The position numbers and the translations under genes were made by a program. A DNA stretch of 64,000 bases from Sphingomonadales bacterium (lineage in GTDB: Bacteria > Pseudomonadota > Alphaproteobacteria > Sphingomonadales > Sphingomonadaceae): assembly GCA_028871475.1 (NCBI GenBank), contig JAGWMZ010000019.1, positions 16,102-80,101 on the forward strand. The letters are read 5' to 3'. Each line of letters starts with the position of its first letter. The stretch's first letter is position 1. Below the pieces are notes generated by a model. That model did not search any database, was not told the origin of the DNA, and was given only the letters and a program-made list of their open reading frames with translations. Shown piece by piece: positions 8,757 to 61,136 of this stretch.

Positions 8757-10144
8757 CGCCCGATCATGGCCTCAGGCCTCACGACGCGGTCGAAGGTCGC
8801 CTCGTCGATCAGGCCAAGCGCCAGGCCTGCCTCCTTCAGCGACAAGCCTTCGTGATGGGCGTGTTTTGCGATTTTGGCCGCATTGTCATAGCCGATCTCC
8901 GGCGCCAGAGCCGTCACCAGCATGAGCGAGCGATCAAGCAGGCCAGCGATACGGGACAGATCGGGCTCGATCCCCTCGACACAGCGCTCCGCAAAGCTGG
9001 CCATGCCCGTCGCCAACAGGGCGATCGAGTGGAGCACATTGGCGCCGATCAGCGGCTTGAAGACGTTGAGTTCCATATGGCCCTGCATGCCGCCCATGGT
9101 GGTGGCGACATGATTGCCCATCACCTGCGCGCAGACCATGGTCAGCATCTCGCACTGGGTCGGGTTGACCTTGCCGGGCATGATCGAGGAGCCCGGCTCG
9201 TTTTCGGGCAATTTCAACTCGCCAAAACCGCAGCGCGGGCCCGAGCCCAGCAGGCGGATGTCATTGGCGATCTTGGTGAGCGACACGGCAAGCGTGTTGA
9301 GCGCGCCAGAGAGGTGAACCAGCGCGTCATTGCAGGCCAGAGCCTCGAACTTGTTGGGCGCCGTGACGAAAGGCAAGCCGGTGATCGCCGCGATTTCCGT
9401 CGCTATATCGACAGCAAAGCCGGGCGGGGTGTTGAGCCCGGTGCCCACCGCCGTCCCGCCTTGGGCAAGGCTGAGCGTGGCAAGGCATGCCTGCTCGATC
9501 CGCTCACGACCGTGAGCGACCTGCGCGGCATAGGCGGAAAATTCATCGCCCAGCGTCAGCGGCGTGGCGTCCTGCAAATGGGTGCGGCCGATCTTGACGA
9601 TGGCGTCCCACGCCTGCGCCTTGGCATCCAGCGCCTGATACAGTCGGGTCAGGGCCGGTAAAAGGTCACGGTGAACGGCCAGCGTTGCGGCGATATGGAG
9701 TGCCGTCGGAAAACTGTCGTTCGACGATTGCCCCTGATTGACGTGATCATTGGGATGGACGGGCGATTTGCCACCGCGCTTGCCCGTCAGCGCTTCATTG
9801 GCGATCCCCGCGATCACCTCATTCACATTCATGTTCGACTGGGTGCCGGATCCGGTCTGCCAGATCACCAGCGGAAACTGATCGTCAAATGCCCCCTTAG
9901 CCACGCGGGCAGCGGCAGCTTCGATGCCCTCGGCCAGATCGGGTGCCAGACCATGTTGGCGGTTCACCCTGGCCGCCGCCTGCTTCACGATGGCCAAAGC
10001 GTGAACGATGCCCAGCGGCATCCTTTCATGCGCAGAAAAGGGGAAATTGTGAATCGAACGCTCGGTCTGGGCGCCCCAATAGGCATCGGCAGGGACTTCG
10101 ATGGGGCCAAAGCTGTCGGTCTCGGTCCTTGTCACACGCATCAC
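8753..10144 (-). CDS. fumC: class II fumarate hydratase
   Basis: 463 aa with the signature [15 protein letters not shown] and full-length resemblance to FumC/aspartase-family lyases. Confidence 0.95.
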
Positions 10145-42544: not shown

Positions 42545-42674
42545 GTCGTCGAAATAAACCCCTGATTTTAAAAGATTGACCTCATTTTCCACTTTCGGCG
42601 TCCGCCGAAGGTGTTCCGGGCCTTGTGCCGCATCATGTGACGCGTCGGCACAGGCCAGAACCGAGGACAATCCC

Positions 42675-44603
42675 ATGGCCATTCGCCAGTTGAATCTCAT
42701 CCGCCGCGGCGACACTTTCTATTATCGCGCAAGCTTCTCACTGGATGGAAAGGTTTCGGAGGTAAGGCTCTCGCTGAAGACCGGTGATCGTCGCGTCGCC
42801 CGTCAGCGTGCGATCGAGATGGATCGCCTTCTCAGGAGCCAGTGGCAGCGATTGTCGAGAATGAACGAAGGCATCTCCCCATCAGATCGGCTCTCCATCC
42901 TGCGCGAGGGCGCCATCAGGGCGCGCGACGCCTTCGAGCAGGTTTTCGCGGTTGAGCAGCACGACGGCTACGACGACGCCGATGAGGTTCAGCGCGAGAA
43001 CCTGCGCACGCTGCGCTCCATGGATCTGGTCGTCCGGGACATCTTCGCTCACGGCCTTGGTCCTTCCTTCGGCACGCACGACCATTTCCACTCCCGCTTC
43101 GTCGAAGGGATGCCGGATCTGTCCCTCGAGGACGGCGTCCGGGTGCAGGAGATCCTTTTCGTCGCCGAAGAACTGCGCACCGCGATCCAGAAGGGCGCCC
43201 ATCGGGCTCTGGTCCGTCGGAACCTGGAAGTGACCCCGGCTAACCTGACATTGGCACGTCAGCAGATGATGGCCGGCGTGGCGCTTGCTATGCGCGATCT
43301 CCAGAAGGAGATCGCGGAGCCCCACGCCAAGGTTGACGACATCCTGGCCTCGCTGTCGCTCGACGACCTGATCGCCGGCGCGGGGCGGGAGTCCGATCAG
43401 GCCTCGCAGCCGGCTCCGCCTCCTCCTGCCGCTCCACCGCCAGCGGCCAGGGACATGGCGCCCGCGGCTGCAATTGTCCTGTCCGAGCCGGTCACACCTT
43501 CCGCTTCGGCTATGTCCATCCGCCAGGCATCCGAGGCCTTTCTTGCCGCGAACCCCAAGCTTGACGCCGATGTCGCCGGCGCCCGCTGGACTCCGAAAAC
43601 AAGAAGCCAGTTCGAGGCTGCGATCTTCCTGGCGGACAAGCATTTCGGTTCAACGGCAGATATTCGGGGCATCGAAGAGACCCAACTCGCCAATTTCTTC
43701 CGGGTTCTGCGCAAGCTGCCCAGCTCCCATCACAAGACCCCGGCCCATGCGGGCATGACGCTCGCGGAAATCGGGGCTGCCAACAACGGCGACGGTCTGA
43801 GCCTGGCCACCACCAACCGCCACATGCGCTTCCTCAAGGCCGTCTTCCAATGGGTCGCCAAGCGGACGCCCGGGGCTCCGATCATCGAATGGTCCGCTTT
43901 CATCGAAGCCGACACCCGGCTGAAGCGCGACAAGCGTGACGCCTTCAAGGTCGACGAGTTGGAGAAGCTGTTCCACGGTCCCGTGTGGAGCGGGTCGGAC
44001 TCCCGCACCCGTCGCCTCAAGCCGGGGCACACGGTCTTCCAGGACGCTTGCTACTGGATCCCTTTACTTTTGACCTATACCGGCGCGCGGCGCGAGGAGG
44101 TCAGCAAGGCGATGGTGCAAGACGTCGAACTGATCGACGGCATCTGGTGCCTGCGCATCCGGGTCAGTGAAACCGGGCGGGTCAAGAACGTAGCGGCAGT
44201 CCGGGATGTCCCCGTCGCAACGGAACTCAGGAGGCTCGGCTTCTTGGAATTCGTCGAAGGCGTACGCGCCGAAGGGCACAGCGAGCTGTTCCCGGAACTC
44301 AGCACCGGGGGCGCCACCTACGGCGACGCCTTTTATAAGAGGTGGTGGCGGGCGTTCATGCGCGCTGATCTTGTGCCAATGGGCAAGGACATGCATTCGA
44401 TCAGGCATTTCGTCGCGGTACAGCTGGGAATAAAAGGCGTGTCCGAGGAGCGTCGCGCGGACCTGCTCGGCCACACCCTCGACAGCAGCGAGACGGTCAC
44501 GACCTATAGCGAGCGCGCCCCGCTCGAACTTCTTCTCAAGGTCGTGGACACCATTCCGTTGGTCACCAGGCATCTGAAGAGGATGCCGCTTCGACGACCG
44601 TAA
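42675..44603 (+). CDS. int: tyrosine-type site-specific integrase (large, with Pro/Ala-rich linker)
   Basis: The C-terminal catalytic region has ARREE (Arg), HSIRHF..VQL, LLGH and a downstream Tyr (TTYSER). ATG verified at 42675. Adjacent to the tRNA. Confidence 0.88.
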   Translation: MAIRQLNLIRRGDTFYYRASFSLDGKVSEVRLSLKTGDRRVARQRAIEMDRLLRSQWQRLSRMNEGISPSDRLSILREGAIRARDAFEQVFAVEQHDGYDDADEVQRENLRTLRSMDLVVRDIFAHGLGPSFGTHDHFHSRFVEGMPDLSLEDGVRVQEILFVAEELRTAIQKGAHRALVRRNLEVTPANLTLARQQMMAGVALAMRDLQKEIAEPHAKVDDILASLSLDDLIAGAGRESDQASQPAPPPPAAPPPAARDMAPAAAIVLSEPVTPSASAMSIRQASEAFLAANPKLDADVAGARWTPKTRSQFEAAIFLADKHFGSTADIRGIEETQLANFFRVLRKLPSSHHKTPAHAGMTLAEIGAANNGDGLSLATTNRHMRFLKAVFQWVAKRTPGAPIIEWSAFIEADTRLKRDKRDAFKVDELEKLFHGPVWSGSDSRTRRLKPGHTVFQDACYWIPLLLTYTGARREEVSKAMVQDVELIDGIWCLRIRVSETGRVKNVAAVRDVPVATELRRLGFLEFVEGVRAEGHSELFPELSTGGATYGDAFYKRWWRAFMRADLVPMGKDMHSIRHFVAVQLGIKGVSEERRADLLGHTLDSSETVTTYSERAPLELLLKVVDTIPLVTRHLKRMPLRRP

Positions 44604-46373: not shown

Positions 46374-46973
46374 ATGTCAGGCTTTTCGATCGATCTGTTC
46401 GGCGCTCCCCTGCTGCCTGGTCTCGAAGGGGCCGACGACATCCTTTCCGCAGACGAGGAAGCCGCGCTTATCGCCCGCATCGACGAGCAGGCGCTTTCAC
46501 CCTTCAAGTTCCAGGGATGGGAGGGCAAGCGCCTCACGACCTCCTTTGGCTGGAACTACGACTTCGAGAAGGGAACCGCGGCCCGCGCGGCTGAGATTCC
46601 GGACTGGCTTCAGGCCATCAAGGCGCGGGCCGCCGCCTTCGCCCGACTGCCCGACGGCGAACTCGTCCAGGCGCTGCTGATCCGCTACGATCCGGGCGCC
46701 GGGATCGGCTGGCACAGGGATCGCCCGATATTCGAGCACGTCGTCGGCATCTCGCTCGGCGTCCATGCCGTGATGCGGTTTCGCAGGCGCATCGAGAAGG
46801 GTTTCAACCGCGTCTCGGCGCCGCTCGCTCCCCGCTCGATCTACCATCTGAGCGGCGAAGCCCGGTACGAATGGGAGCACAGCATCGCCGAGATGGAGGA
46901 GACACGCTGGTCCATCACCTTTCGCAGCCTGTCGACGCGGGGCCGACGGGAACTCTATATCGAGCCCGCCTAG
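46374..46973 (+). CDS. alkB: AlkB-like Fe(II)/2-oxoglutarate-dependent dioxygenase
   Basis: IGWHRD (HxD), a distal His (EWEHSI) and RWSITFR (2OG-binding Arg), with the size typical of AlkB repair dioxygenases. Confidence 0.8.
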   Translation: MSGFSIDLFGAPLLPGLEGADDILSADEEAALIARIDEQALSPFKFQGWEGKRLTTSFGWNYDFEKGTAARAAEIPDWLQAIKARAAAFARLPDGELVQALLIRYDPGAGIGWHRDRPIFEHVVGISLGVHAVMRFRRRIEKGFNRVSAPLAPRSIYHLSGEARYEWEHSIAEMEETRWSITFRSLSTRGRRELYIEPA

Positions 46974-47833: not shown

Positions 47834-48338
47834 GACGGTGAACTCCGTTGGGCGATCCCTCTCAACTACGAAGCGAAGCGGCGGAACGTCACACGGGCTG
47901 CCAAATTTTTTCCTCGATGTCCTCGCGTATCGCGGATGGATCAACCGATGCGGCCCACATCACGTCCGCAGTCGTCAACCTCAGTCGTCGCACCGGCCAG
48001 ACTTGGCGCGTTGCCTATCGGGAGGCTGTGCTTACGGCGATCAGGACAACTGCCGTGAACCGCCCTGCCGCCTTCGGGAAGGTAGCGCCATAGTTCCTCT
48101 CGGGATTGAGTGCGGAAAGCGCCTGACATTCCCTTTTCTGGTGATTGCTCACCTTCCTGCATGTCAGATCGCGCAAGCTACAGAGAACCATCGAAATCCA
48201 TCAAGTCTTGTAAAGACATCTAAAAAACGCATAATAATCTGACGTTATCCATTGGAATCCCTTTTCTTTTATCATGCTTTGTGTCCTGTCTCCTCCAAGC
48301 AACGGACCAAGGGAGATTTTAATCTAAACGACACCTTG

Positions 48339-48359
48339 AATGTCGGATAATCCGACATT
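48339..48359. promoter_or_regulatory. perfect 10-1-10 palindrome, candidate XRE operator
   Basis: AATGTCGGAT-A-ATCCGACATT lies 38 nt upstream of the first ATG of the operon, inside an AT-rich promoter-like stretch. Confidence 0.45.
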
Positions 48360-48396
48360 ATAAAGAAGGAATGTAGGCAAAACGCTCGAGGTCACG

Positions 48397-48741
48397 ATGG
48401 CAACGATCGCTCCCGCAATTCCGAAACCAGACATTTTTCCCCGTGACGACGTCATCAAAGCCTTGGTCGCAGAACTGCTCCAGAATGCAGTCGCCGAGGC
48501 GCAGGTCCGTGGCATCAATCTCCCGGCTGATGTGCCTGGGCGCATGACGGCAGCCGTTCCGATGGATTCACTTTCCGTCGTCGCGACGTTGGTCGCCGTC
48601 GAGGCCGTGGTGGGATTTGAACTGAAGGACAGTCTCGTCCGCACCGGTGGCTACGCCTCGGTCCAAGCTGCCGTCGACCATGTCGTGCCCCGCATCCAGG
48701 CTGTCTGGGAGAAGAAGAAAAGCAAGGGCAAGAAGGCGTGA
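48397..48741 (+). CDS. carrier-protein-like small protein (ACP/PCP-fold candidate)
   Basis: The segment PMDSLSVVATLVAVEAVVGFELKD...YASVQAAVDHV parallels ACP [24 protein letters not shown]...TTVQAAIDYI, including the DSL serine. Its stop overlaps the next start (GTGA). Confidence 0.5.
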   Translation: MATIAPAIPKPDIFPRDDVIKALVAELLQNAVAEAQVRGINLPADVPGRMTAAVPMDSLSVVATLVAVEAVVGFELKDSLVRTGGYASVQAAVDHVVPRIQAVWEKKKSKGKKA

Positions 48742-49106
48742 CCCGCGAAGCACCTCCGATCGAGGACGACGACGCGGCTCGACGCCAGCTCGGCGAGCGA
48801 CTGAAGGAGGCGCGAAAGTACCTCGGCCTGACGCAGGAGGAGGTTGCCGCATATCTTCGGATTGGACGCACCGCCCTCGGAGACATCGAGAGCGGTCAGC
48901 GCCGGGTCGAGGTCATCGAACTGACCCGGCTCGCGAAGCTCTACCGGCAATCGGTGGGATACTTCACCGGCGAGGAGGAATCGTCCGGACTTCCTGCCGA
49001 TGTGGCGCACCTCGCGCGCAGGGTGGCCGATCTGTCGCAAGACGATCGCGACGAACTGGCACGCTTCGCGGATTATCTCCGCACGCGGTCGAGCGGTGAG
49101 CGCTGA
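48738..49106 (+). CDS. XRE-family HTH regulator (ImmR-like)
   Basis: LGERLKEARKYLGLTQEEVAAYLRIGRTALGDIESGQR is a canonical HTH_3 domain. It lies immediately upstream of an ImmA/IrrE-type peptidase. Confidence 0.85.
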   Translation: MTREAPPIEDDDAARRQLGERLKEARKYLGLTQEEVAAYLRIGRTALGDIESGQRRVEVIELTRLAKLYRQSVGYFTGEEESSGLPADVAHLARRVADLSQDDRDELARFADYLRTRSSGER

Positions 49107-49109
49107 ACG

Positions 49110-50120
49110 GTGGCGGCAGATTATCCCAGCGCCGTCAGGGCTGGTGCGCTCGCGGCGGCGCGCCTGCACAACCAACTCGCTGTCCGCGCCGCCGTCGAGA
49201 CCGGAGGCGGTTCCATCGACGTCTTCAGCGCCATCAACGCGCTGGAGCTGCCGCTGCTCCTGCGCCCGCTGAAAGGCCTATTGGGCGCATATCTGAATCT
49301 ACCGGTGCCGGGCGTGCTGGTTACGACCGAACGGCAGATGAGCATCCAGAGGTTCACAGCCGCCCACGAACTCGGCCACTACTTCATGAAGCACGAGCCC
49401 AGCCTCGATGACGAGAGCATCCTGCGACGCATGCCGACGTCTCCCGAGCCCGGCGGACTGTTTCAGGAGGCCGAGGCGGATTCCTTCGCGGTCGCCTTCA
49501 TGATGCCGATGTGGCTGATCCTGATGCACGCTGCCCGACAGGGCTGGCAGGTCCCGGACTTCCAGCGTCCGAACATCGTGTATCAGGCGTCATTGCGCCT
49601 GGGCGCCAGCTACGAGGCCACCTGCAGGACACTCGCCCGTTACGATCTCATCTCCCAGTGGACTATGCACGACCTTCTCAACGTCAAGCCGCGCGAGATG
49701 AAGGTCGATCTCCTCCGGGAGTACCGCCCCCCCAACTACAGGGGCGACGTCTGGCTGCTCACCGCGAAGGACGCGGGGACGCGTATCGATGGCAGCCGCA
49801 ACGACGTGTTCGTGCTCAGATTGAACGAGCATAGTGGTGGTGGCTATCTTTGGGACTTCGAACAGCTGGCGCAAAGTGGTTTCGCCATTGTCCGGGACGA
49901 CCGGGAAGCGATCGATCCCGAGGGGATCGGCAGCCCGGTGATCCGACGCGTGACCGCGGCGATCGAGGATGCCGACCGGGGGCGTATGTCGTTGAGCGAA
50001 CGGCGTCCATGGCAGCCCTCGACCGCGATCGCGGATCTGACCTTCGACTATGATGTCACCGGTCCCGAGCGGGCTGGCCTATCGCGTGCGGAGCGCCGCG
50101 CTCGCCTCGAGGTGGCATGA
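49110..50120 (+). CDS. ImmA/IrrE-family (M78) zinc metallopeptidase fused to a chagasin-like (I42) cysteine-peptidase inhibitor domain
   Basis: HELGHYFMKH zinc motif at 49365-49379 in a COG2856-like context. The C-terminal 105 aa or so carry the three chagasin loop motifs in order: GGGYLWDF (cf. NPTTGYxW), IGSPV (cf. GxGG) and RRPWQP (RPW). GTG start. Confidence 0.75.
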   Translation: MAADYPSAVRAGALAAARLHNQLAVRAAVETGGGSIDVFSAINALELPLLLRPLKGLLGAYLNLPVPGVLVTTERQMSIQRFTAAHELGHYFMKHEPSLDDESILRRMPTSPEPGGLFQEAEADSFAVAFMMPMWLILMHAARQGWQVPDFQRPNIVYQASLRLGASYEATCRTLARYDLISQWTMHDLLNVKPREMKVDLLREYRPPNYRGDVWLLTAKDAGTRIDGSRNDVFVLRLNEHSGGGYLWDFEQLAQSGFAIVRDDREAIDPEGIGSPVIRRVTAAIEDADRGRMSLSERRPWQPSTAIADLTFDYDVTGPERAGLSRAERRARLEVA

Positions 50121-50803
50121 TGGCAACGATTGAGATCGAGGTCGATTTGCGGGAGCGTTTCGGCCCCGCCCGCGACCAGGGCCCGCGACCGACTTGCCTG
50201 GCTTTTGCGACAAGCGACAACCACGCCGGACTTCGCGCGGGCTGGCAGCCGCTCTCGTGTGAATATCTCTACTTCCACGCTCAGCGCCGCGCCGGCCGGT
50301 TGCCAGGGCAAGGGGCCGTGCTCCCGGCTATGCTGGAGGCCCTGCGCGGTGACGGGCAGCCGGTTGAAGCCGGCTGGCCCTATCTGGACGCCTCGCCGCC
50401 GGAAGGCGACGCTTGGAAGCCGCCAATCGAGGTCGGATCATGCTACGGGCGCGTCGGTGTCGCGTCGCAGCCGGACGTTAGCGGCGTTCGCAGCATGCTC
50501 TCGCTGGGCCATCCCATAGTCGTGCTTTCGATGCTCTCGCGCTCATTCTTCAGGCCGGTTGACGGCGCGGTTGCGCCCGTACCGGGAGAGCAGCCGGAAC
50601 CGAGCCAGCGCCATGCGGTCGTCGCCGTCGGCCACGGCAGGGTTGACGGTGAACCGGCGACGCTCGTTCGGAACAGCTGGGGACCCGGGTGGGGGCTCGA
50701 TGGGCACGCATGGCTCACAGACGCATTTCTCGCACCCCGCATCTTCGCCACAGCCACGTTAATGGAGGAAGTGAATGTACCTTCCCGTGCCATCGCAGCC
50801 TGA
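50117..50803 (+). CDS. papain-like (C1 family) cysteine peptidase, no signal peptide, no prodomain
   Basis: DQGPRPTCLAF parallels NQGSCGSCWAF (oxyanion Gln plus catalytic Cys27). HAVVAVGHG parallels HAVAAVGYG. VRNSWGPGWGLDGHAWL parallels IKNSWGTGWGENGYIRI. ATGA overlap with the preceding gene. Confidence 0.78.
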   Translation: MMATIEIEVDLRERFGPARDQGPRPTCLAFATSDNHAGLRAGWQPLSCEYLYFHAQRRAGRLPGQGAVLPAMLEALRGDGQPVEAGWPYLDASPPEGDAWKPPIEVGSCYGRVGVASQPDVSGVRSMLSLGHPIVVLSMLSRSFFRPVDGAVAPVPGEQPEPSQRHAVVAVGHGRVDGEPATLVRNSWGPGWGLDGHAWLTDAFLAPRIFATATLMEEVNVPSRAIAA

Positions 50804-51554
50804 CTGCATCTCCGCATGGCTCAAGGCGGTTCGCCTCGTCGACGCCGAGACCGGCCACCACGCCCACAACGTGATCATCGACGTCGAGGATCCGACGGCG
50901 CGGGCGTCGATGTCGGACCCTGCGGTTGCGGCGGTCAGCCAGTTCCTCGCCGACCACGACAAGAAGCCTGTCGAGACCGTGGCGAACACCATCTTCCCGG
51001 CTGGGCTCTACACCCGATACGGCGCCCCCGCCTTCTTCGACAGGTTCCGGGAGGATGTCCTTCCGAAGGTCCGTCGCTCCGAGGATTGGTCCGGCTACTA
51101 TTTCGAACGGATGATGCATCTGCCTCAGGTCGAGGGCGATCCGATCAACCAGCTCTGGGAGATCGTCGGGCGGCTGCGAAACCCCAATGTGCGGGCGCTG
51201 AACAAGTTCGAGCTGAGCATCTTCGATGCCGCGCGGGACGTGAACGACTCGCCATACGGCGGACAGTGCCTGAGCTTCGCCAGCCTGAAGCTGGTGGGGA
51301 AGCCCGATGCGCGACGGCTCACGATGACGGCCTTCTACCGCAACCACTTCTACATCGAGAAGCTTCTCGGCAACCTCATCGGCCTGGGACGGCTACTCAA
51401 GTTCCTGGCGGTGGAAGGACGAGTCGAAATGGGCTCGCTCACGATCGTGTCAACCCACGCGGAGATCGACATGGCGAAATGGACGCGCGACGACTTCCTC
51501 GAACTGGTGCGAACCGCCGATCAGGCGAACGCCGAAGTCTTGGCCGCTGTGTAG
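50775..51554 (+). CDS. thymidylate synthase / dCMP hydroxymethylase-fold protein (divergent)
   Basis: INQLWEIVGRLRNPNVRA...GGQCLSF...LTMTAFYRNHFYIEKLLGNLIGLGRLLKFLA follows the ThyA pattern DQL...LK.NP.SRR...PCH.F.QF...L.C.LYQRS.D..LG.PFNIASYALL. GGAGG lies 6 nt upstream of the ATG. 29-nt overlap with the peptidase gene. Confidence 0.55.
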   Translation: MYLPVPSQPDCISAWLKAVRLVDAETGHHAHNVIIDVEDPTARASMSDPAVAAVSQFLADHDKKPVETVANTIFPAGLYTRYGAPAFFDRFREDVLPKVRRSEDWSGYYFERMMHLPQVEGDPINQLWEIVGRLRNPNVRALNKFELSIFDAARDVNDSPYGGQCLSFASLKLVGKPDARRLTMTAFYRNHFYIEKLLGNLIGLGRLLKFLAVEGRVEMGSLTIVSTHAEIDMAKWTRDDFLELVRTADQANAEVLAAV

Positions 51555-52219
51555 GCGTTCTCGAAGGGCAGCTTCGGCTCGTCCTCGCCGGACACCCCGT
51601 AGAGGCCGAACATGCTATCGATGAACTCGCGCTGCCCGCCATAGCTCGGGTGCCGCACCCCTTCGGTCGGAAGACCGAATTCCGTGAGCGCCAGCTGCGC
51701 ATCCCGTCCGATCGCGATGATCTGCCGCGGCCTGAGCATCTCGATCAGCGCCTCGAGAAGGGGCCAGGTCGCAACGCGTTCCGCGCGCGTGTGGCAGCGG
51801 TTCGAAAGCGGACTATTGGGCTCGTGAGGGTGGAACGGGAACACGTTCCACAGCATCACCGGCTGGCCGATCCGGCTCAGAACCCTCCATGTCACGGCAG
51901 CCGTCCGCTCGGCCACGACTGGCCCCTCCGTCGCCCGCGCCAGCTCGATCCCGCCCATGAGCGCTGCGGCGCTATCCAGGTGGACCTCGTCGGTAAGGGG
52001 AACGCCAGTCCGGCGCCCTCCCCGGTATCCGAGATCCCGCGCGATCCAGATCGTTTCAACTCTCGTCTCCAGCGCGGCGTCCAGCATCCGCTCCAGATTG
52101 GTCCGCCGCCGCGCCGCCGCGTCCTCGCGGTCATGGACCGGGCACACGTCTGACCACGGATTGAAAACCGAAGGCAGGCGGGCCTCCGAGAGGGCGGTTA
52201 CGAATTCACGGGGCGTCAC
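51521..52219 (-). CDS. uracil-DNA glycosylase-superfamily protein (divergent motif A, HPS motif B)
   Basis: IARDLGYRGGRRTGVPLTDE sits at the motif-A position, with NVFPFHP and GVRHPSYGG (HPS motif B). The GTG start at 52219 overlaps the upstream stop (GTGA). Confidence 0.65.
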   Translation of the reverse strand: MTPREFVTALSEARLPSVFNPWSDVCPVHDREDAAARRRTNLERMLDAALETRVETIWIARDLGYRGGRRTGVPLTDEVHLDSAAALMGGIELARATEGPVVAERTAAVTWRVLSRIGQPVMLWNVFPFHPHEPNSPLSNRCHTRAERVATWPLLEALIEMLRPRQIIAIGRDAQLALTEFGLPTEGVRHPSYGGQREFIDSMFGLYGVSGEDEPKLPFENAYTAAKTSAFA

Positions 52220-53391
52220 TGGGGCAAGTCCTTGATGCGCAGACGGCGGTTGTTCAGGTCTATCGTCACGCGGCCGCGCCGATGCTGCTGGAGGAAGCGG
52301 AACGCCGCGTAGCCCTGGAGGATAGCGTCCTCCCAGAGCCACAATGGGCATTGCGCCACCTCGTAGCCGGCGACGAACTGGCGCACATGCTTCAACATGT
52401 CCAGCGGTAATCCTCCGACCTTCACGTGCGCAAAGAACTCAAGCTGTTGCGCCTGGCCGAACAGCCAGGAGGTGACCCCCTCCTCGATCAGGATCGCCCG
52501 GGCGCCATCCTCCACCTCGTCGATTCGCGGTGCGCTCTTCCGCTTAAGGCGCAGGAGGGACCGGAGGACGGGCGACCAGCCGAGTACCGCGACATAGGCG
52601 TAGTGGAACACGTCATGGAAGCGATAGTCGTCTGGCTCGGCGGAATTGTCGGTGAGCCGATCGCCGACGAACGCCCCGCTCGACCTCTGATATACGTAAG
52701 TCTGCGACCGCACGGTGCGTTCGTAAATGTCGATCGTCATCCTTCTGGGAAGCTGCTCCTCGGGATCCATCGCCGCATCGAAAGACGCCGGATACACCCG
52801 CTCGCGAGGCCAGCGGTCGAAGATCTTGTGGAGATTCTTGACGGCCGCGGCCTCCATGGTCACGCCGGATTCGTTCGCCGCCTGTATGAGCCTCCCCATC
52901 ACCGTTACCAGCCTCCGCCGCAGTTCGGCGGTGACGACGGGGAGCCCCGGACGGAAATCGGCCAGCAGGCCGCCGACTTCGCCGGCAAGCGTCAGCAGGG
53001 TGTTCTCGAATGCCGTGGTCGGGGCCTTCACAAGCGGAATGTGGGCCGGCTGAAGGCTGTGGAACGTAAGGGCGTCGTTGCCGCCCATCACCCACTCCCC
53101 GCCCTCGCGGATGGCTGCCGCGGCAATGTCCGACAGGGAGAAGCGGGTTCGCCGTGAGATGGCGGCTAGATACCAGAGGACGTCGCCGAGCTCCTCGGCC
53201 ACCGCGTCTGCATATCCAAGGTAGGACGCCGCATCACGCTGCTTCTTCTTGGCTACGGAGAGCAGACTTCCCGTCTCTCCGAAGAGCCCAAGCATGGAGA
53301 AGCCGAGGGCTTGGCCCCCTCCCCGCTGGTCCGTCTTGGCCGCCTGCTTGGCGTAGTCCGCCACGGTCAGGGCCTCGAAGTCCTCTCCCAT
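52216..53391 (-). CDS. MazG-like all-alpha NTP pyrophosphohydrolase domain protein with about 230-aa C-terminal region of unknown function
   Basis: The N-terminal domain carries LGLFGETGSL and AVAEELGDVLWYLAAI (EExxD metal motif). A second helical segment ends KNLHKIFDRW. No motif was recognised in the C-terminal half. Confidence 0.65.
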   Translation of the reverse strand: MGEDFEALTVADYAKQAAKTDQRGGGQALGFSMLGLFGETGSLLSVAKKKQRDAASYLGYADAVAEELGDVLWYLAAISRRTRFSLSDIAAAAIREGGEWVMGGNDALTFHSLQPAHIPLVKAPTTAFENTLLTLAGEVGGLLADFRPGLPVVTAELRRRLVTVMGRLIQAANESGVTMEAAAVKNLHKIFDRWPRERVYPASFDAAMDPEEQLPRRMTIDIYERTVRSQTYVYQRSSGAFVGDRLTDNSAEPDDYRFHDVFHYAYVAVLGWSPVLRSLLRLKRKSAPRIDEVEDGARAILIEEGVTSWLFGQAQQLEFFAHVKVGGLPLDMLKHVRQFVAGYEVAQCPLWLWEDAILQGYAAFRFLQQHRRGRVTIDLNNRRLRIKDLPQ

Positions 53392-53396
53392 CAGCG

Positions 53397-53690
53397 CTAG
53401 CCCCCTCTTCGCCGAGCAGTGTCTTCAGGAATGTTCATCCGGTCTGGAGCGAAAGCCCCACGGCCGCTCATTCGGATCGATTCGCCGTAGCGAAATAAGT
53501 GCCGGTCCTGCACTTCTCGTGGGAACTGCGGAAAATGGATCTTGATGTCTTCCCCGACGACCTCATCACCATCCCCCCCTGACGTCATGATGTGTGCATG
53601 AAAACATCGGAAGAGGAAAACATCAAGCTTCTTGCGATACTCGTCTGAATAGGCACCACCCGGCGAGACTAGCGCGACCGATATCCGCAC
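53397..53690 (-). CDS. possible small leader ORF of the MazG-like operon (doubtful)
   Basis: The stop lies 5 nt before the MazG-like ATG. The most plausible start is ATG at 53588 (63 aa). The region has lower GC and weak coding bias. Confidence 0.2.
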   Translation of the reverse strand: MRISVALVSPGGAYSDEYRKKLDVFLFRCFHAHIMTSGGDGDEVVGEDIKIHFPQFPREVQDRHLFRYGESIRMSGRGAFAPDRMNIPEDTARRRGG

Positions 53691-55376: not shown

Positions 55377-56150
55377 ATGTCCTTGCCTTCTGCCTTCCCT
55401 GCTGCCTCCCGCGACCAACTCGATGCCCTGCGCGCCGAGCTTTCCAGTGCGCGCAGACTGCGGGGGCCGGCTCTGCCCTTTGGCGTGCCGATGCTCGACG
55501 ACCGGCTGGCCGCTCAGGGGCTGGATGGCGCGGGGCTCCACGAGATCGCCGCAGCCTCGTCGCGCCTGGGCGATGACGCTGCAGCCTCCCTCTTCGCCGC
55601 CGGCATCGCCGCACGCTTCGCCGATCAGGGCAACTTCACCGTCCTGTGGGCCCTGTCGCGCTTCGATCTCTATGCTCCCGGCCTGGAACAGGTCGGCCTT
55701 GCTCCCTCGCAACTGCTCTACGCCCAGGGCAGGAACGATCAGGAGGTGCTGGCGGTCGCCGAGGACGCCCTGCGCGACGGCTCGCTCGCCTGCGTGATCG
55801 CGGAAGTGAAGGCGGCCGACATGACCGCCACGCGCCGCCTTCAGCTGGCGACCAGCGACGGCAAGACGCCCATGCTGCTCTACCGGCGACACCGGGCCCG
55901 TGACCACTGCCCGCTGACGCAGAACTCGTCGGCCATGACGCGGTGGCGGATCGGCTGCCTGCCATCCCTTCCACTGCCCCACCCTGGCGTCGGCCGGTCC
56001 CGCTGGTCGGTCGAACTCGTCCGCCAGCGTGGCGGCAATCCCTTTTCCCTCGACTTGGATGCCTGCGATGACAAGGGTTGCCTCGCTCACCCTGCCCTTT
56101 CTGCCGATCGAGCGATTGCGTCGGCTGGAAAGGCCAGTCGCGTGGCCTGA
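55377..56150 (+). CDS. imuA: ImuA, RecA-fold SOS mutagenesis protein
   Basis: It is the first gene of the imuA-imuB-dnaE2 arrangement. It has the G.P.LD..L..GL..G.LHE pattern and a W.VEL.R.RGG tail. Confidence 0.78.
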   Translation: MSLPSAFPAASRDQLDALRAELSSARRLRGPALPFGVPMLDDRLAAQGLDGAGLHEIAAASSRLGDDAAASLFAAGIAARFADQGNFTVLWALSRFDLYAPGLEQVGLAPSQLLYAQGRNDQEVLAVAEDALRDGSLACVIAEVKAADMTATRRLQLATSDGKTPMLLYRRHRARDHCPLTQNSSAMTRWRIGCLPSLPLPHPGVGRSRWSVELVRQRGGNPFSLDLDACDDKGCLAHPALSADRAIASAGKASRVA

Positions 56151-57876
56151 ACCCATCGCCTTCGGCGCGCCTGCGCCCTCCGTCATCGACGACGATCCCG
56201 GCGCCTGCTCGGTGCCGCGTGGCGGTGGCTGGCGCCCCGGCGCGCGATGGGCGCGCGATGGCGCGCTTGCATCAGACAGGGCGAGCCAAGCAGAGATCGA
56301 CACCCTGCCGGCGCACCAGCGCCCGACCATGCGCGAGATGGGCCGCCGCAGCGAAGGTGCGGATCATCCCTTCAAGGCCATGCCAGCTGATGAGGGATCG
56401 CCTGCGCCTGCACCGCGCCTGACCTGGGCCAACCTCTGGGGCACGCCGACCGTGCTGGTCACCCGGACCGGCCAGCGCGACGTGATCACCGCAGCCTGCC
56501 CGGTCGCCATCGGCCTCGGCCTGCATCTCGGCATGGCTGCGGCCCATGCCCGCGCGCTGGTGGCCGATCTGGAAGTGCGCGAGGCGGAACCGCAAAAGGA
56601 CCGCGCTTGGCTCGATCGGCTCGCGCTCCATGCCGTCAGACATTGGACACCCGGCGCCAGCGTTTCAGGGGACGACGGCCTATGGCTGGACCTCTCGGGC
56701 ACCAGCCATCTCTTCGGAGGTGAGGAGCGCTTCTGCCGCCGACTGCTGCGTTTCCTGGCCCGCCTTGGCTTCTCCGCACAAATCGCCATCGCGGGGGCTC
56801 CCGGGGCGGCCAATGCGATGGCGCGCCACGGCGGCAAGGCCATAACGCTGGTCCATCCGGGCCGTGAGGCCGATGCTATCGCATCGCTGCCGCTGGAGGC
56901 GCTGCGGCTTACGCCCGATGTGTTGACGGCTGCAGCACGCGTCGGCCTGGAGCGCATCGCCGATCTCTACCCTATGCCCCGTGGACCTCTGGCCAAACGG
57001 TTCGGCATCGCCACCGTGACCCGCCTCGATCAGGCGCGCGGCATCGTCGCCGAGCCCATCGTGCCGGTGGTGCCCTTCGAGACACCGCAGGCCGAGCGCC
57101 GGCTGCTGGAGCCCATCGGCACGGCCGAGGCGATCGCCCAGGTGATCGGCGATCTGGTCGACGATCTGATGGGCCAGCTGCAGGAGCGCAGGCTGGGCCT
57201 GCGCACCGCCCTGCTCACCTGCCTAGTCGTCGATGGCGGCCAGCAGCGGATCGGGATCGGCACGGCCAAGGCCAGCCGCGATGCCCGCCACCTCAAGCGC
57301 ATGCTCGCCATGCGGATCGATCGCATCGACCCGGGCTTGGGCATCGAGGCGATGACGCTGGTGGCGCCGCGCGTCGAGGACCTGCAGCCTGAAGCCATTG
57401 CCGCCAAGCTGGGCACCGGCGACCGCCCAGCGGAGCTGGCGCCGCTGGTGGATCAGCTCTCTGGCCGGATCGAGCCGCAGGGCTTGTTCCGCATCGAGCC
57501 GAAGGAGAGCGATGTCCCTGAGCGAGCGACCCGTCGCGTCGATCCGTTGTCAAAACCTACAGGCTGGCCGGCATGGAAGCGCCCCGTCAGGCTGCTGGCC
57601 CGCCCGGAACCGCTGGCCCGCGTCATGGCCCTGCTTCCAGACGCGCCACCGCGCCGCTTCGAATGGCGCGGAGCGTCCTATCAGGTTGCCAGTGGCGAAG
57701 GGCCTGAGCGTATCCATGGCGAATGGTGGCGCAACGAGAGGGAGATGTGGGCGGTCCGGGACTATTTCATGGTCGAGGCCCAGACCGGCGAGCGCTTCTG
57801 GCTGTTCCGGCGCGGAGACGGCGTGGAGCCCCCCACAGGCGATTTGTCCTGGTATCTCCATGGGCTGTTCGGCTGA
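56068..57876 (+). CDS. imuB: ImuB, Y-family DNA polymerase-like protein
   Basis: Begins [17 protein letters not shown]. It has the length and position typical of ImuB, and its stop overlaps the dnaE2 start (TGATG). Confidence 0.82.
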
Positions 57877-60800
57877 TGGCCACCTATGTCGAACTTCAGG
57901 TGACCAGCCACTTCTCGTTCCTGCGCGGCGCCTCGGCACCCGAGGAGCTGTTCTCGAAGGCGGCGGCTCTCGGTCACAAGGCGCTGGGCCTGACCGACTG
58001 GGGAAGCGTGGCCGGCGTTGTCCGTGGCTGGACCGGCCAAAAGGACACAGGCGTTCGCATGATCCCCGGCGCGCGGGTCGATCTGACCGACGGCAAGGCA
58101 CTGCTGCTCTATCCCATGAACCGCGAGGCCTGGTCCCGGCTCACCCGCCTGCTCTCCGTGGGCAAGGCGCGCGGCGGCAAGGGCCGCTGCCTGCTCGACT
58201 GGAGCGATGTGGCCGCCCATGCCGAGGGGTTGATCGCCAACCTGGTCCCGGACATGCCCGACGAGCGAACCGTGTCCGACTTGAAGGCCTTGCGAGAGGC
58301 GTTTGGCTCGCATGGCTATTGCGCCCTGTCCTTTCGACGACGCCCCGGCGATGCCGGACGCCTCTATGCCCTAGATGCCATGGCCCGCACCGCTCGCGTG
58401 CGCTGCGTGGCGACCGGCGATGTCCTCTATCACGCCCCCGAGCTTCGCCCCCTGCAGGACGTGCTGACAGCCATCCGTGCCGGCTCAACCATCGACGCAC
58501 TGGGCTTTCGGCGCGAGCGCTACATGGACCGGAACCTGAAATCCCCGGAGGAAATGGAAAGGCGCTTCGCCTCCTATCCCGATGCTATCCAGGCCAGCGC
58601 CGACATCGCGGCCCAATGCACCTTCGATCTGGGCGAGATCCGCTACCAGTACCCCTATGAGCAGGTCATGGCCGAGCGCAGCGCCCAGGATGCGCTCGCG
58701 GCGCTGACCGAGGAGGCCGCCGCCGCTATGTTCCCGAGCGGTCTGCCCGCCCCCTACCGTAGCCAGATCGACCATGAGCTGCGGCTGATCGACAGCCTGG
58801 GCTATGCCCCCTATTTTCTCACCGTCCATTCCATTGTGGCAGAAGCCCGGCGGCGGGGCATCCTCTGCCAGGGACGCGGCTCGGCGGCCAACAGCTGTGT
58901 CTGCTACATGCTGGGCATCACCTCGATCGATCCGATCCAGCATGAGCTGCTCTTCGAGCGCTTCGTCTCGGGCGAGCGCAAGGAGCCACCCGACATCGAT
59001 GTGGACTTCGAGCATGAGCGCCGCGAGGAGATCATCCAGTGGATCTATGAGACCTATGGCCGCCATCGCTCGGCGCTGACCGCCGTCGTCACCCGCTACC
59101 GCACGCGCGGCGCGGTGGCAGAAGTGGGCAAGGCACTCGGTCTGCCGCGCGATCTCACCAAGATGCTCACCGGCCTGGTCTGGGGCTGGTCGGTCGACGG
59201 TATCTCGGATGAGCAGATCGAGAGCCTGAACCTCAATGCCCAGGATCACCGTCTGCGACTATGCCTCGATCTCTCCCGGCAGCTGATCGGCACGCCGCGC
59301 CATCTCTCGCAGCATCCTGGCGGCTTCGTGCTAACGCAGGATCGACTCGATGACCTCGTGCCCATCGAGCCAGCCCGCATGGCCGATAGGCAGATCATCG
59401 AGTGGGACAAGGACGATATCGACGCGCTCAAATTCATGAAGGTCGATATCCTGGGGCTGGGCATGCTGGGCTGCATGAACCGGGCCTTCAACATGCTGGC
59501 GGACATGAAGGGCATCGCCATCGGCATGGCCGATCTCCAGAAGGACGACCCTGCCGTCTATGCGATGATCCAGAAGGCGGACACGCTGGGCACCTTCCAG
59601 ATCGAGAGCCGGGCCCAAATGTCGATGCTACCCCGGATCAAGCCCGCTAAATTCTATGATCTCGTGATCGAGGTGGCCATTGTGCGCCCCGGGCCCATCC
59701 AGGGCGATATGGTCCATCCCTATCTGCGGAGGCGAGAAGGTCGCGAGAAGCCCGAGTACCCGAAACCAGAATTACGCGCCGTGCTCGAAAAGACGCTGGG
59801 CGTGCCCCTCTTTCAGGAGCAGGCGATGAAGGTCGCCATCGTCGGCGCTGGCTTCACCCCCGCCGAGGCCGATCAATTGCGCCGGGCCATGGCGACCTTT
59901 AAGATGACGGGCGGCGTCAGTCATTTTTACGACCAGCTGGTCGGCGGTATGGTCTCGCGCGGCTACAGTCAGGACTTTGCCGAGCGCACATTCAAGCAGA
60001 TCGAGGGATTCGGGAGCTACGGCTTTCCCGAGAGCCATGCCGCCAGCTTCGCCAAGATCGCCTATGCTTCATGCTGGATGAAGCACCACCACCCCGACGT
60101 CTTCTGCGCCTCGTTGCTCAATGCCCAGCCCATGGGATTCTACGCCCCGGCCCAGATCGTGGCGGATGCCAGGAAGCACGGGGTGGAGGTTCGGCCCGTC
60201 TCGATCAACCACAGCCATTGGGACTGTACGCTCGAATACACCAACCGCCGGCACCTGGCCGTGCGCCTCGGCTTCCGGCAGGTGCGCGGGCTGGCCAACC
60301 TGCACGGCGCGCGGATCGTGGCCGCCAGAGGCGATCAGCCCTATGGCAGCGTGGAGGAGGTCTGGCGGCGGGCGGGCGTGCCGCGCGCGGCGATCGAGCG
60401 CCTGGCCGAAGCCGATGCCTTCTCGGCCATCGCGCAGGACCGGCGGCAAGGGTTATGGAAGGTCAAGGGACTGGGTGATGCCCCCTTGCCCCTCTTTGCA
60501 GCAGCGGATGCCAAAGAGGAGCAGTTCTCACCTGAAGGTGTCGAGCCGACCGTGACGCTCATGCCGCTGACCGAAGGACGGGAGGTGGTCGAGGATTATC
60601 GCTCGATCCAGCTCTCCCTGCGGGCCCATCCGGTGAGCTTCCTGCGCGAGGAGCTGGCGGGCATGAAGATCGTGTCCTGCGGCGATCTGCCCAGCCAGCG
60701 CGATGGCCGCAATCTGGAGGTGGCCGGCATCGTGCTGGTCCGCCAGCGCCCCGGCAGCGCCAAGGGCGTGCTCTTCGTCACCATCGAGGACGAGACAGGC

Positions 60801-61136
60801 GTGGCCAACGCCATCCTGTGGCCCGACAAGTTCGAGACCTATCGGCGCCAGATCATGTCGGCCTCGATGATCGCGGTGCGGGGGCGCCTGCAGAAGGAGG
60901 GCGAGATCATCCATGTCATCGCTGACAGGATCACGAACCTGGACGCCATGCTGCGCTCGATCGGGAGGCAGGACCTGCAGCTACCTCACGGGCGCGGCGA
61001 TGGCGCGGCTCAGGGCGGTGGCCCCGACCCTCGCGACCCAGGTTTTCCGAAGGGCCGCGTGCTTTCAGCTCCCGCCTTCAGGACCGATGGGAAGCAGGAT
61101 GAGATACTGCCCGTCCGCAGCCATGATTTTCATTGA
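57876..61136 (+). CDS. dnaE2: error-prone DNA polymerase DnaE2 (ImuC)
   Basis: Begins [20 protein letters not shown] (PHP domain). Also has the Pol III alpha core ([22 protein letters not shown]) and an OB fold. Confidence 0.95.

Follow-up and report, generated by a model that had tools for sequence, protein, structure and literature searches.

A discrete, horizontally mobile cassette of about 5.06 kb lies at positions 48335-53398 of a 64,000-nucleotide stretch of DNA from a Sphingomonadales bacterium (assembly GCA_028871475.1, contig JAGWMZ010000019.1, positions 16,102 to 80,101 of the forward strand), which is referred to in its full length as the window. One arm of this cassette consists of two minus-strand genes, encoding a MazG-MazG_C protein and a protein resembling uracil-DNA glycosylase (UDG). 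The second arm is an operon headed by a palindrome and encoding an acyl carrier protein (ACP)-like protein, a CapH-like repressor, a CapP-like M78 peptidase with a chagasin-type domain, a C1 peptidase and a thymidylate synthase (TS)-fold enzyme (Table 1). As far as alignments with homologues can tell, catalytic or signature residues are kept in all seven cassette proteins. The reading favoured here, which is put forward with reserve, is a damage- or infection-induced defence in which the cell would write a non-canonical base into replicating DNA and would then attack the modified base.

Table 1. Coordinates of the cassette features in the window.
Feature	Position	Strand	Basis or remark
Perfect palindrome, likely operator of the helix-turn-helix (HTH) repressor in the plus-strand operon promoter	48339..48359	.	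Once in window
Small ACP-like protein, 114 aa	48397..48741	+	Conserved D-S-L/M serine
XRE-type HTH repressor, CapH-like	48738..49106	+	Pfam HTH_3 2.2e-11; PADLOC capH 1.3e-12
M78 (ImmA/IrrE, CapP-like) metallopeptidase fused to chagasin-type I42 inhibitor domain	49110..50120	+	Pfam, PADLOC
Papain-family (C1) cysteine peptidase	50117..50803	+	Pfam Peptidase_C1 3.2e-8
TS-fold enzyme, 259 aa, not a canonical ThyA	50775..51554	+	Family profile against TS structures
UDG-superfamily protein, 232 aa, GTG start, translationally coupled to MazG	51521..52219	-	Pfam UDG, homologue lengths
MazG-MazG_C protein, 391 aa	52216..53391	-	Pfam MazG and MazG_C
MazG domain	~53107-53391	-	Within MazG-MazG_C gene
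Degenerate second MazG-like repeat	~52807-53094	-	Within MazG-MazG_C gene
MazG_C domain	52228-52788	-	Within MazG-MazG_C gene
Diverged remnant of small open reading frame upstream of MazG, probably non-functional here	53397..53588	-	Intact in 76 related loci

The unity of the two arms is evident from two surveys. A scan of one genome per species yielded 67 loci with MazG relatives at 50-79% identity, which together with two loci found separately makes 69, and all seven genes are present in the same order and orientation at about 63 of them, the exceptions being contig ends or decayed copies. In addition, local hidden Markov models (HMMs) were run over a non-redundant set of 122 MazG_C loci drawn from genomes, plasmids, metagenomes and viral contigs, and among the 58 with at least 4.5 kb on both sides, 35 have the seven genes of the window. 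The original prediction had viewed the MazG-UDG pair either as a second, separate module beside the operon at 48.4-51.5 kb or as part of one larger eight-gene system. These co-occurrences support a single system with that operon, of which seven genes are intact here and the eighth is a remnant only; a separate module is not favoured for this cassette. DNA homology to several loci begins at 48335 and ends at 53392-53398, and the flanks beyond are unrelated among the loci compared. The cassette has sulfite-reductase genes on one side and a hemolysin-type gene on the other in Rhizorhabdus wittichii RW1, and it lies beside an integrase on a mobilisable plasmid in Burkholderia glumae, after Rep3, ParA/ParB, SSB and ArdC on a plasmid contig in the closest relative (84% DNA identity), and between msrA and a PepSY gene, near imuA-imuB-dnaE2, in the window.

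If the MazG-UDG pair and the protease/TS operon were instead two independent modules lying side by side, this would agree with the recombination of the pair with Nmad2 and Toll/interleukin-1 receptor (TIR) genes at 5 of the 58 loci, and with the presence of an operator at only one of the two promoters. However, in the class with the TS-like gene practically all loci whose flanks are long enough have both arms together, and their order and orientation do not vary. This is still so where MazG identity is as low as 38-39%, and in Alpha- as well as Betaproteobacteria, and DNA homology spans both arms as a single block; independence of the arms is hardly credible.

Homologues are found on 36 plasmids, of which 19 are conjugative. 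Segments of 21,173 bp around the cassette show 100% identity among assemblies named Sphingopyxis, Acidovorax, Sphingobium, Novosphingobium and Qipengyuania (L007, L009, L019, L021, L022 and L026; L numbers denote loci of this analysis); either one element has spread very recently or the assemblies are cross-contaminated. The window itself corresponded to no known plasmid record in a megablast search against plasmids. One seven-gene copy abuts Hachiman genes (HamA and a helicase), and an Nmad2 variant is located in a TIR island. In phage genomes, matches were to the N-terminal MazG domain only; full-length MazG-MazG_C is matched by only 7 of the best 80 loci kept from IMG/VR (2.9 million contigs), and PHROG 229 includes a MazG_C-like region. 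A role in defence or DNA modification, as proposed originally, is consistent at the level of context with plasmid carriage, with the Hachiman and TIR neighbours and with the listing of a related system by DefensePredictor.

Within the minus-strand arm, the two genes are coupled, as had been proposed, by a GTGA overlap at 52216-52219, in which TGA 52218-52216 ends the MazG open reading frame (ORF) and GTG 52219-52217 opens the UDG frame, with AAGGA 9 nt upstream. The ORF list places the UDG start at ATG 52351 (276 aa), and the GTG 52219 start (232 aa) is better supported. UDG homologues have 218-246 aa, mostly 231-236 aa (120 among the matches listed), and where their N-terminus is complete they start with M-T-P or M-N, which lines up with V-T-P in the window; lengths and register together indicate that the gene is 51521-52219 and is coupled to MazG. 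A UDG ORF stands directly downstream of MazG on the same strand in 68 of the 105 non-redundant relatives having more than 800 bp downstream.

The convergence on the peptidase operon noted earlier is likewise real, with the 3' ends of the UDG and TS-like genes overlapping by 34 nt (51521-51554). In the window and close relatives, this overlap implies that no terminator separates the genes and that their transcripts must overlap. The same overlap is found in relatives at 65-93% protein identity (L001 9844-9877; L238 9838-9871), and more distant versions (L072, L077) have a small gap rather than an overlap between these 3' ends. Antisense coupling through the overlap was considered as a general mechanism and dropped, as variants from Nostoc, Mycobacterium and metagenomes are co-directional or otherwise arranged. 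A scan for promoters and terminators gave nothing above shuffled expectation.

The eighth gene is a small ORF of 60-65 aa directly upstream of MazG in 76 related loci (L001 7804-8001, L007 ~9800-10004 and 74 others), whose stop overlaps the MazG start (TGATG). Its product has no Pfam match, and its consensus (...DEHLQIQVPAxTKRDLGQRALDTREPIRMIVLRALxAYGV...DRRKRR) looks ribbon-helix-helix-like; an intact copy would bring the cassette to eight genes. The window retains a remnant in frame (region 53397-53690, minus strand) with 26% identity over 43 aa, ungapped, which the family HMM does not detect, and the closest relatives, L238 and L239, also lack the ORF.

Profile and structure searches uphold both domain calls made for the minus-strand genes, and the C-terminal region of the first protein proved to be partly known. 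The MazG assignment rests on a Pfam match above the cut-off (PF03819, 25.3 bits against 22, residues 36-93). E39, E66, E67 and D70 are invariant in 59 homologues, and the last three form the EExxD motif within EELGD. The second Glu of the first acidic motif (ExxE) is Ser or Gly in homologue alignments (GETGS). An AlphaFold2 (AF2) model was built on the 59-sequence alignment, with a mean predicted local distance difference test score (pLDDT) of 91.4 and a predicted template modelling score (pTM) of 0.86; a single-sequence model, with a pLDDT of 43, was discarded. In this model the MazG domain has an all-alpha four-helix fold, matched by Foldseek to dimeric dUTPases, DCTPP1 and iMazG with probabilities of 0.96-0.99. 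The N-terminal ~200 aa are closest to the dimeric dUTPases (C. jejuni 1w2y, probability 0.99) and also match phage two-repeat MazG/dUTPases. In an alignment of 44 diverse relatives, residues ~100-195 are an optional insert that resembles another MazG repeat in degenerate form, with GEVGG present and the EExxD helix lost; short forms of ~290 aa do without it.

The C-terminal region of about 230 aa, described in the original prediction as uncharacterised, is instead composed of this degenerate repeat and a named Pfam domain of predicted function, MazG_C (PF18722, 271 bits against a cut-off of 29.7, E 6e-81, residues 202-388). MazG_C occurs in more than 7,600 proteins (1,974 clusters at 50% identity). 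In the AF2 model it is built of a beta-hairpin, a helical core and a C-terminal hairpin, and its invariant residues are H259-D260-x-x-H263, K283-R284-K285, D291, D295, R298 and E303-E304. The Foldseek search with the whole protein is dominated by the MazG half and carries no information on MazG_C. A MazG_C profile found no relative among PDB sequences, the sole match being a chance 24 residues of platelet-activating factor (PAF) acetylhydrolase, and showed no similarity to the helical domain of 5-hydroxymethyl-2'-deoxyuridine (5-hmdU) DNA kinase. Single-sequence PDB searches with the MazG, UDG-like and TS-like proteins gave nothing meaningful. In the passage of the DefensePredictor paper that concerns it (PMC13092281), MazG_C is called "a predicted nucleotide kinase", with Burroughs et al. 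2015 cited there for this.

For the second protein, the UDG fold, the retained HPS motif and the atypical motif A were all confirmed. It scores above the Pfam cut-off (PF03167, 25.9 bits against 24.3), and the best structural relatives of its family profile are family 4 UDGs (Thermotoga maritima TM0511; 1l9g and 1vk2, E 0.007), which likewise have a beta-2 motif with Asn and the His of motif B. Four blocks do not vary in the family, namely FNPW..C..HD, W-x-A-R-D-L-G-Y-R-G-G-R-R-T-G-x-x-x-T-D-E, L-W-N-V-F-P-x-H-P-H and R-H-P-S-x-G-G (RHPSYGG in the window), so that the motif B His (HPS) is kept and invariant, and the uracil-recognising Asn is kept as well. At the position of motif A, mapped by eye in 13 diverse homologues, ARDLGYRGGRRTG takes the place of GxxPG or GQDPY within an invariant A-R-D-L-G-Y-R-G-G-R-R-T-G, which is none of the types compared for families 1-5 (GQDPY, GINPG, GMNPG, GE(A/G)PG, GLAPG). 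In contrast to family 4, where motif A is GE(A/G)PG, the window family has ARDLG and does not conserve the four-Cys 4Fe-4S signature, with only C26 invariant and C142 present in most sequences. The NCBIfam family 4 models are matched far below their cut-offs (NF040953, 14.6 bits against 250; TIGR00758, 13.4 against 125.3). By these conserved residues, the UDG-like protein is assigned to a distinct branch of the UDG superfamily.

The modified base on which such a protein might act is suggested by the variants of the cassette, whose parts are interchangeable. In 13 of the 58 loci a 5-hmdU DNA kinase (PF18723) replaces UDG, often accompanied by holo-ACP synthase, and a further 5 have the combination of MazG_C, UDG, Nmad2 and TIR. 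UDG is present in 43 loci and the kinase in 13, with both in none and neither in 2; similarly, the TS-like gene is present in 52 and Nmad2 in 5, with both in none and neither in 1. The mutual exclusion of UDG and 5-hmdU DNA kinase suggests one and the same modified pyrimidine in DNA as the target of both. Some variants add genes for dCTP-deaminase-like (DCD), nucleoside-diphosphate kinase (NDK) or NUDIX proteins, or have thymidylate kinase fused to MazG_C. DCD, NUDIX and NDK genes recur near MazG_C (L074 10460-14898; L076 13908-14594; L101, L107, L109, L118, L122, L124, L132 and L136-L138). By analogy, these additional genes would fit a flux from dCTP to dUTP, dUMP, X-dUMP and X-dUTP, like that of phages with 5-hmdU in their DNA (PMC5889632, PMC8989533).

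The same alternation, pointing to a DNA target of the 5-hydroxymethyluracil (5-hmU) type, would also be expected if the cassette were a defence against phages in whose DNA 5-hmU or a derivative takes the place of thymine. MazG would then hydrolyse the non-canonical dNTP of the phage and the UDG-like enzyme, or 5-hmdU DNA kinase in variants, would attack the base, with no modified nucleotide being made by the cell. MazG enzymes are known hydrolases of non-canonical NTPs, and the uracil-recognising Asn and motif B His of the UDG-like protein agree with such a function. Nevertheless, this leaves the TS-like enzyme of 52 of the 58 loci without a role, the kinases and dCTP-deaminase-like genes of the variants point to synthesis and not degradation, and the phage class concerned is narrow for a family of this very large size. 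This explanation is quite improbable.

Synthesis by the cell is brought into consideration by the TS-fold enzyme. Its family profile matches almost exclusively TS structures in the PDB, over the catalytic core (best E 0.05). When 12 diverse homologues are mapped manually, the invariant C165, Y109, R189 and N200 align without gaps to C146, Y94, R166 and N177 of E. coli ThyA, among them its catalytic Cys nucleophile (C146), its phosphate-binding Arg (R166) and its uracil-specifying Asn (N177), and the positions of ThyA D169, H207 and Y209 are occupied by Phe192, Glu and Asp. The protein, with its ~259 aa, has no obvious counterpart of the C-terminal segment of TS.

The operon to which this enzyme belongs appears to be tightly regulated. 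Its palindrome has two arms of 10 nt, AATGTCGGAT-A-ATCCGACATT, with TATAAA directly after, and none is expected in shuffled sequence. A palindrome of the form ATGTC(G/T)GA-N3-5-TC(C/A)GACAT is found equally far upstream of the first gene in ~25 distinct related loci, where a substitution in either arm is matched by its complement in the opposite arm (TGTCTGA/TCAGACA). From this conservation, it is likely the operator of the HTH repressor. Shared operator control of both arms was considered and dropped, there being no operator copy upstream of MazG.

At the head of the operon, the adjacent HTH and M78 genes both match PADLOC models (capH 1.3e-12, capP 7.5e-13), and sequence comparison shows a CapH/CapP-like switch. 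Protease-repressor switches of this kind, namely CapH/CapP, DdrO/IrrE and ImmR/ImmA, induce cyclic-oligonucleotide-based antiphage signalling systems (CBASS) and other defence operons upon single-stranded DNA (ssDNA) or DNA damage (Lau et al. 2022, bioRxiv 10.1101/2022.04.27.489752; Calloji et al. 2026, 10.64898/2026.05.16.725639). As in CapH/CapP, the repressor and the M78 peptidase lie side by side at the head of a regulated operon with a conserved palindromic operator, although in the window the pair is preceded by the ACP-like gene. The M78 protein (Pfam Peptidase_M78 1.2e-7) has a HELGH motif at residues 86-90 that is conserved in 33 sequences, and its match to the capP model covers positions 37-153 of 242, which is the peptidase half only. 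The C-terminal GAF domain of CapP, with its ssDNA groove, is replaced in the window by a chagasin-type domain (Inhibitor_I42, 4.7e-7, 30.4 bits against a Pfam cut-off of 27.2). Among the 69 non-redundant loci, I42 and C1 are both present in 62 and both absent in 5, C1 alone is present in 2 and I42 alone in none. This dependence of I42 on a following C1 gene suggests that it is a built-in inhibitor of the neighbouring protease, in which Q21, C27, H166 and N186 are conserved in 34 sequences.

The ACP-like protein of the window has the residues PMDSLSVV, and of 8 aligned homologues 7 retain the DS(L/M) motif. Pfam gives no significant match for the window protein, and a Streptomyces homologue passes Pfam PP-binding (E 9e-8). 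Holo-ACP synthase adjoins the cassette in several variant loci, an association from which the ACP-like protein is probably phosphopantetheinylated; the cassette of the window has no holo-ACP synthase gene of its own. This 4'-phosphopantetheinyl transferase is present in many variants with 5-hmdU DNA kinase and in one with UDG (L070 3054-3455, L074 8182-8571, L104-L110, L115, L118, L122).

Taken together, a dUTPase-like MazG domain, a TS-fold enzyme with the uracil-type Asn, a predicted kinase and the kinase and deaminase genes of the variants resemble the phage route to 5-hmdU, placed under an inducible repressor. In the favoured reading, a signal of DNA damage or infection (ssDNA, by analogy with CapP/CapH) would cause the M78 peptidase to cleave the repressor and the plus-strand operon to be turned on. 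The MazG domain would deliver a dUMP-type substrate, on which the TS-fold enzyme would attack uracil C6 and add a group at C5 as phage dUMP hydroxymethylases do, and MazG_C, as a predicted nucleotide kinase, would help to bring the product back to the triphosphate pool. Polymerases would then put the modified base into replicating DNA, which during infection would be mostly phage DNA. There the UDG-fold protein, for which sister cassettes have a 5-hmdU DNA kinase instead, would recognise the base and make a lesion by excision or further modification, so that replication would be blocked. The C1 peptidase, restrained by the chagasin domain, may serve as a second effector or switch, and the outcome would be anti-phage defence, possibly by abortive infection. 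A more specific form of this proposal, 'suicide-base' immunity, is possible and decidedly more doubtful. In it, upon a signal of DNA damage or infection the cell itself would make a C5-modified dUTP via the dUTPase-like MazG domain, a folate-independent TS-fold enzyme and MazG_C, with the donor group perhaps supplied by the ACP-like carrier, phage DNA would incorporate it, and the UDG-fold enzyme (or 5-hmdU DNA kinase in sister systems) would turn every incorporated base into a lesion, with the chagasin-gated protease as a second arm.

Several points weigh against this defence reading. The activities of all seven proteins are predicted, and the role of MazG_C as a kinase is only a prediction for which no structural or sequence relative was found by PDB profile, Foldseek or comparison with 5-hmdU kinase. 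The TS-like protein has no Pfam match and reaches 27 bits against a cut-off of 174.55 for NCBIfam TIGR03283; judged from its alignment, it lacks equivalents of the folate-contacting Asp169 and the deoxyribose-binding His207 and Tyr209, which bears on both its one-carbon donor and its substrate. With its non-canonical motif A, base excision by the UDG-like protein is not assured. The reading accounts for no role of the ACP-like protein, nor for coordination of the two arms, since the region upstream of MazG yielded no full or convincing half-site and the MazG-UDG operon is without an operator copy. MazG, UDG, the TS-like protein and C1 are not among the models of PADLOC 2.0. Lastly, ArdC-type anti-restriction genes are often near plasmid copies, and a DNA-protective role fits these equally well.

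Such a role could take the form of protective, anti-restriction hypermodification by a plasmid or mobile element, which would mark its own new DNA with a modified thymidine analogue. The UDG-fold protein would in that case be a base-flipping transferase, the ACP-like protein would deliver the group, and the ssDNA-sensing peptidase would fire upon plasmid entry as ssDNA. Glycosylase-fold aGPT-Pplases act as transferases in phages, which offers a comparison, and the UDG motif A is without the usual catalytic residues. Frequent carriage on conjugative plasmids, the position of the closest relative beside Rep3, ParAB, SSB and ArdC, and the association of the ACP-like protein and holo-ACP synthase with the cassette would also agree, as would the alternation of UDG with 5-hmdU DNA kinase, an enzyme of phage hypermodification (PMC5889632). 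However, relatives are found in defence islands with Hachiman and TIR genes, and DS-4, with a related set of enzymes, protects E. coli from phage (PMC13092281). No aGPT-Pplase or other transferase was found by Pfam among the seven proteins, MazG_C is rare in viral contigs, as the IMG/VR count given above indicates, and tight repression and damage induction suggest that expression is costly. Protective hypermodification is considered unlikely, though not negligibly so, and the induced defence remains preferred.

The surroundings of the window copy bring up one more explanation. An imuA-like gene, imuB (IMS family and DUF6504) and dnaE2 (error-prone Pol III alpha) occupy 55377-61136 on the plus strand, ~2 kb from the MazG start; imuA-imuB-dnaE2 is the canonical SOS mutagenesis cassette, and its adjacency to MazG is not conserved in other genomes. 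Upstream of the cassette, also on the plus strand, are genes for a 675-aa protein with a weak phage-integrase (tyrosine recombinase) match and DUF6538 (42576-44603) and for an AlkB-like 2-oxoglutarate-Fe(II) oxygenase (46374-46973), and this region may be part of a larger genomic island. With AlkB-like, MsrA and imuA-imuB-dnaE2 genes nearby, the cassette might be an accessory, DNA-damage-inducible repair set that would clean the nucleotide pool of dUTP or other damaged dNTPs and excise uracil, with no role in conflict with phages or other elements. The logic of a DdrO/IrrE-like regulator pair is that of a damage response, and the dUTPase-like MazG domain would suit it. Yet in other genomes the cassette does not keep these flanking genes, its occurrence is patchy, it is carried on plasmids and has moved recently, and the UDG motif A is non-canonical. 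Moreover, the set is always tied to a C1 peptidase with its inhibitor domain, a non-canonical TS-like enzyme and an ACP-like protein, for which repair has no need. A pure repair function is very improbable.

If the favoured defence reading is true, bacteria would turn the non-canonical thymidine analogues of phages against phages. It would also provide the first experimentally established function for MazG_C, and likewise for a distinct family of UDGs whose motif A is non-canonical and for an enzyme of the TS fold that has no folate site. The gating of a C1 peptidase by chagasin, in fusion with a CapP-like sensor, would be a new wiring of a protease effector, and the alternation of UDG with 5-hmdU DNA kinase supplies a concrete, testable hypothesis on the DNA base involved. 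Even if its function is ordinary, the cassette is a clean, compact and very widespread candidate system absent from PADLOC.

In the literature examined, no experimental test of the cassette was found, and searches on chagasin/ImmA and Nmad2 returned nothing relevant. The chemistry proposed here has its nearest counterpart in the thymidine hypermodification of phages, reportedly treated by Iyer et al. 2013 as well. That pathway comprises a dUMP hydroxymethyltransferase, 5-HMUDK, which is the kinase that phosphorylates 5-hmdU in DNA, and aGPT-Pplase (Lee et al. 2018, 2021; PMC5889632, PMC8989533). Both systems have, in the cassette by prediction, a TS-family enzyme that modifies dUMP in the pool and DNA-acting enzymes for 5-hmdU after replication, and the structural matches to the MazG half include, at rank 47, a putative dUTPase of phage phiW-14. 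In contrast to the phage pathway, the cassette is cellular or plasmid-borne, repressor-controlled and rare in viruses. By Pfam, its seven window proteins include neither a 5-hmdU DNA kinase nor an aGPT-Pplase; where the phage pathway has the kinase, the window has a UDG-fold protein, HMUDK_hel is confined to sister cassettes without UDG, and the TS-like enzyme is without the folate-site residues.

Among defence systems, DS-4 ('NTTI') combines thymidylate synthase, an adenylate/dNMP kinase, 5-hmdU DNA kinase, TIR and Nmad2 and has been validated in E. coli (PMC13092281). The logic common to DS-4 and the cassette is a TS-family enzyme, a nucleotide kinase and an enzyme on 5-hmdU in DNA, the latter two being predicted in the cassette, and the 5-hmdU DNA kinase domain of DS-4 (PF18723) is also the one that stands instead of UDG in sister cassettes of the window system. 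The two differ in that the thymidylate synthase of DS-4 (361 aa) is canonical by Pfam and its kinase is of the P-loop type, and DS-4 has no MazG/MazG_C, UDG, CapH/CapP-like switch or C1 peptidase. Also related is the 'MazG + MazG-C, NMAD, UDG' system of DefensePredictor, which is predicted, with no experiment reported (DeWeirdt, Mahoney and Laub, Science 2026; PMC13092281, Fig. 6F, S12B). It shares with the window the MazG-MazG_C family followed by the same UDG-like gene, and its architecture was found directly in L075, as MazG_C, UDG, Nmad2 and TIR. The window, however, has no Nmad2 by Pfam among its seven proteins and no TIR, and the partners are instead the ACP-like, HTH, M78-chagasin, C1 and TS-like proteins. 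Ultimately, the window system shares its MazG-UDG pair with the predicted DefensePredictor system and its enzyme logic with DS-4, and what sets it apart from both is the partnership with an ACP-like protein, a chagasin-gated C1 peptidase, a CapP-like switch and a non-canonical TS-like enzyme.

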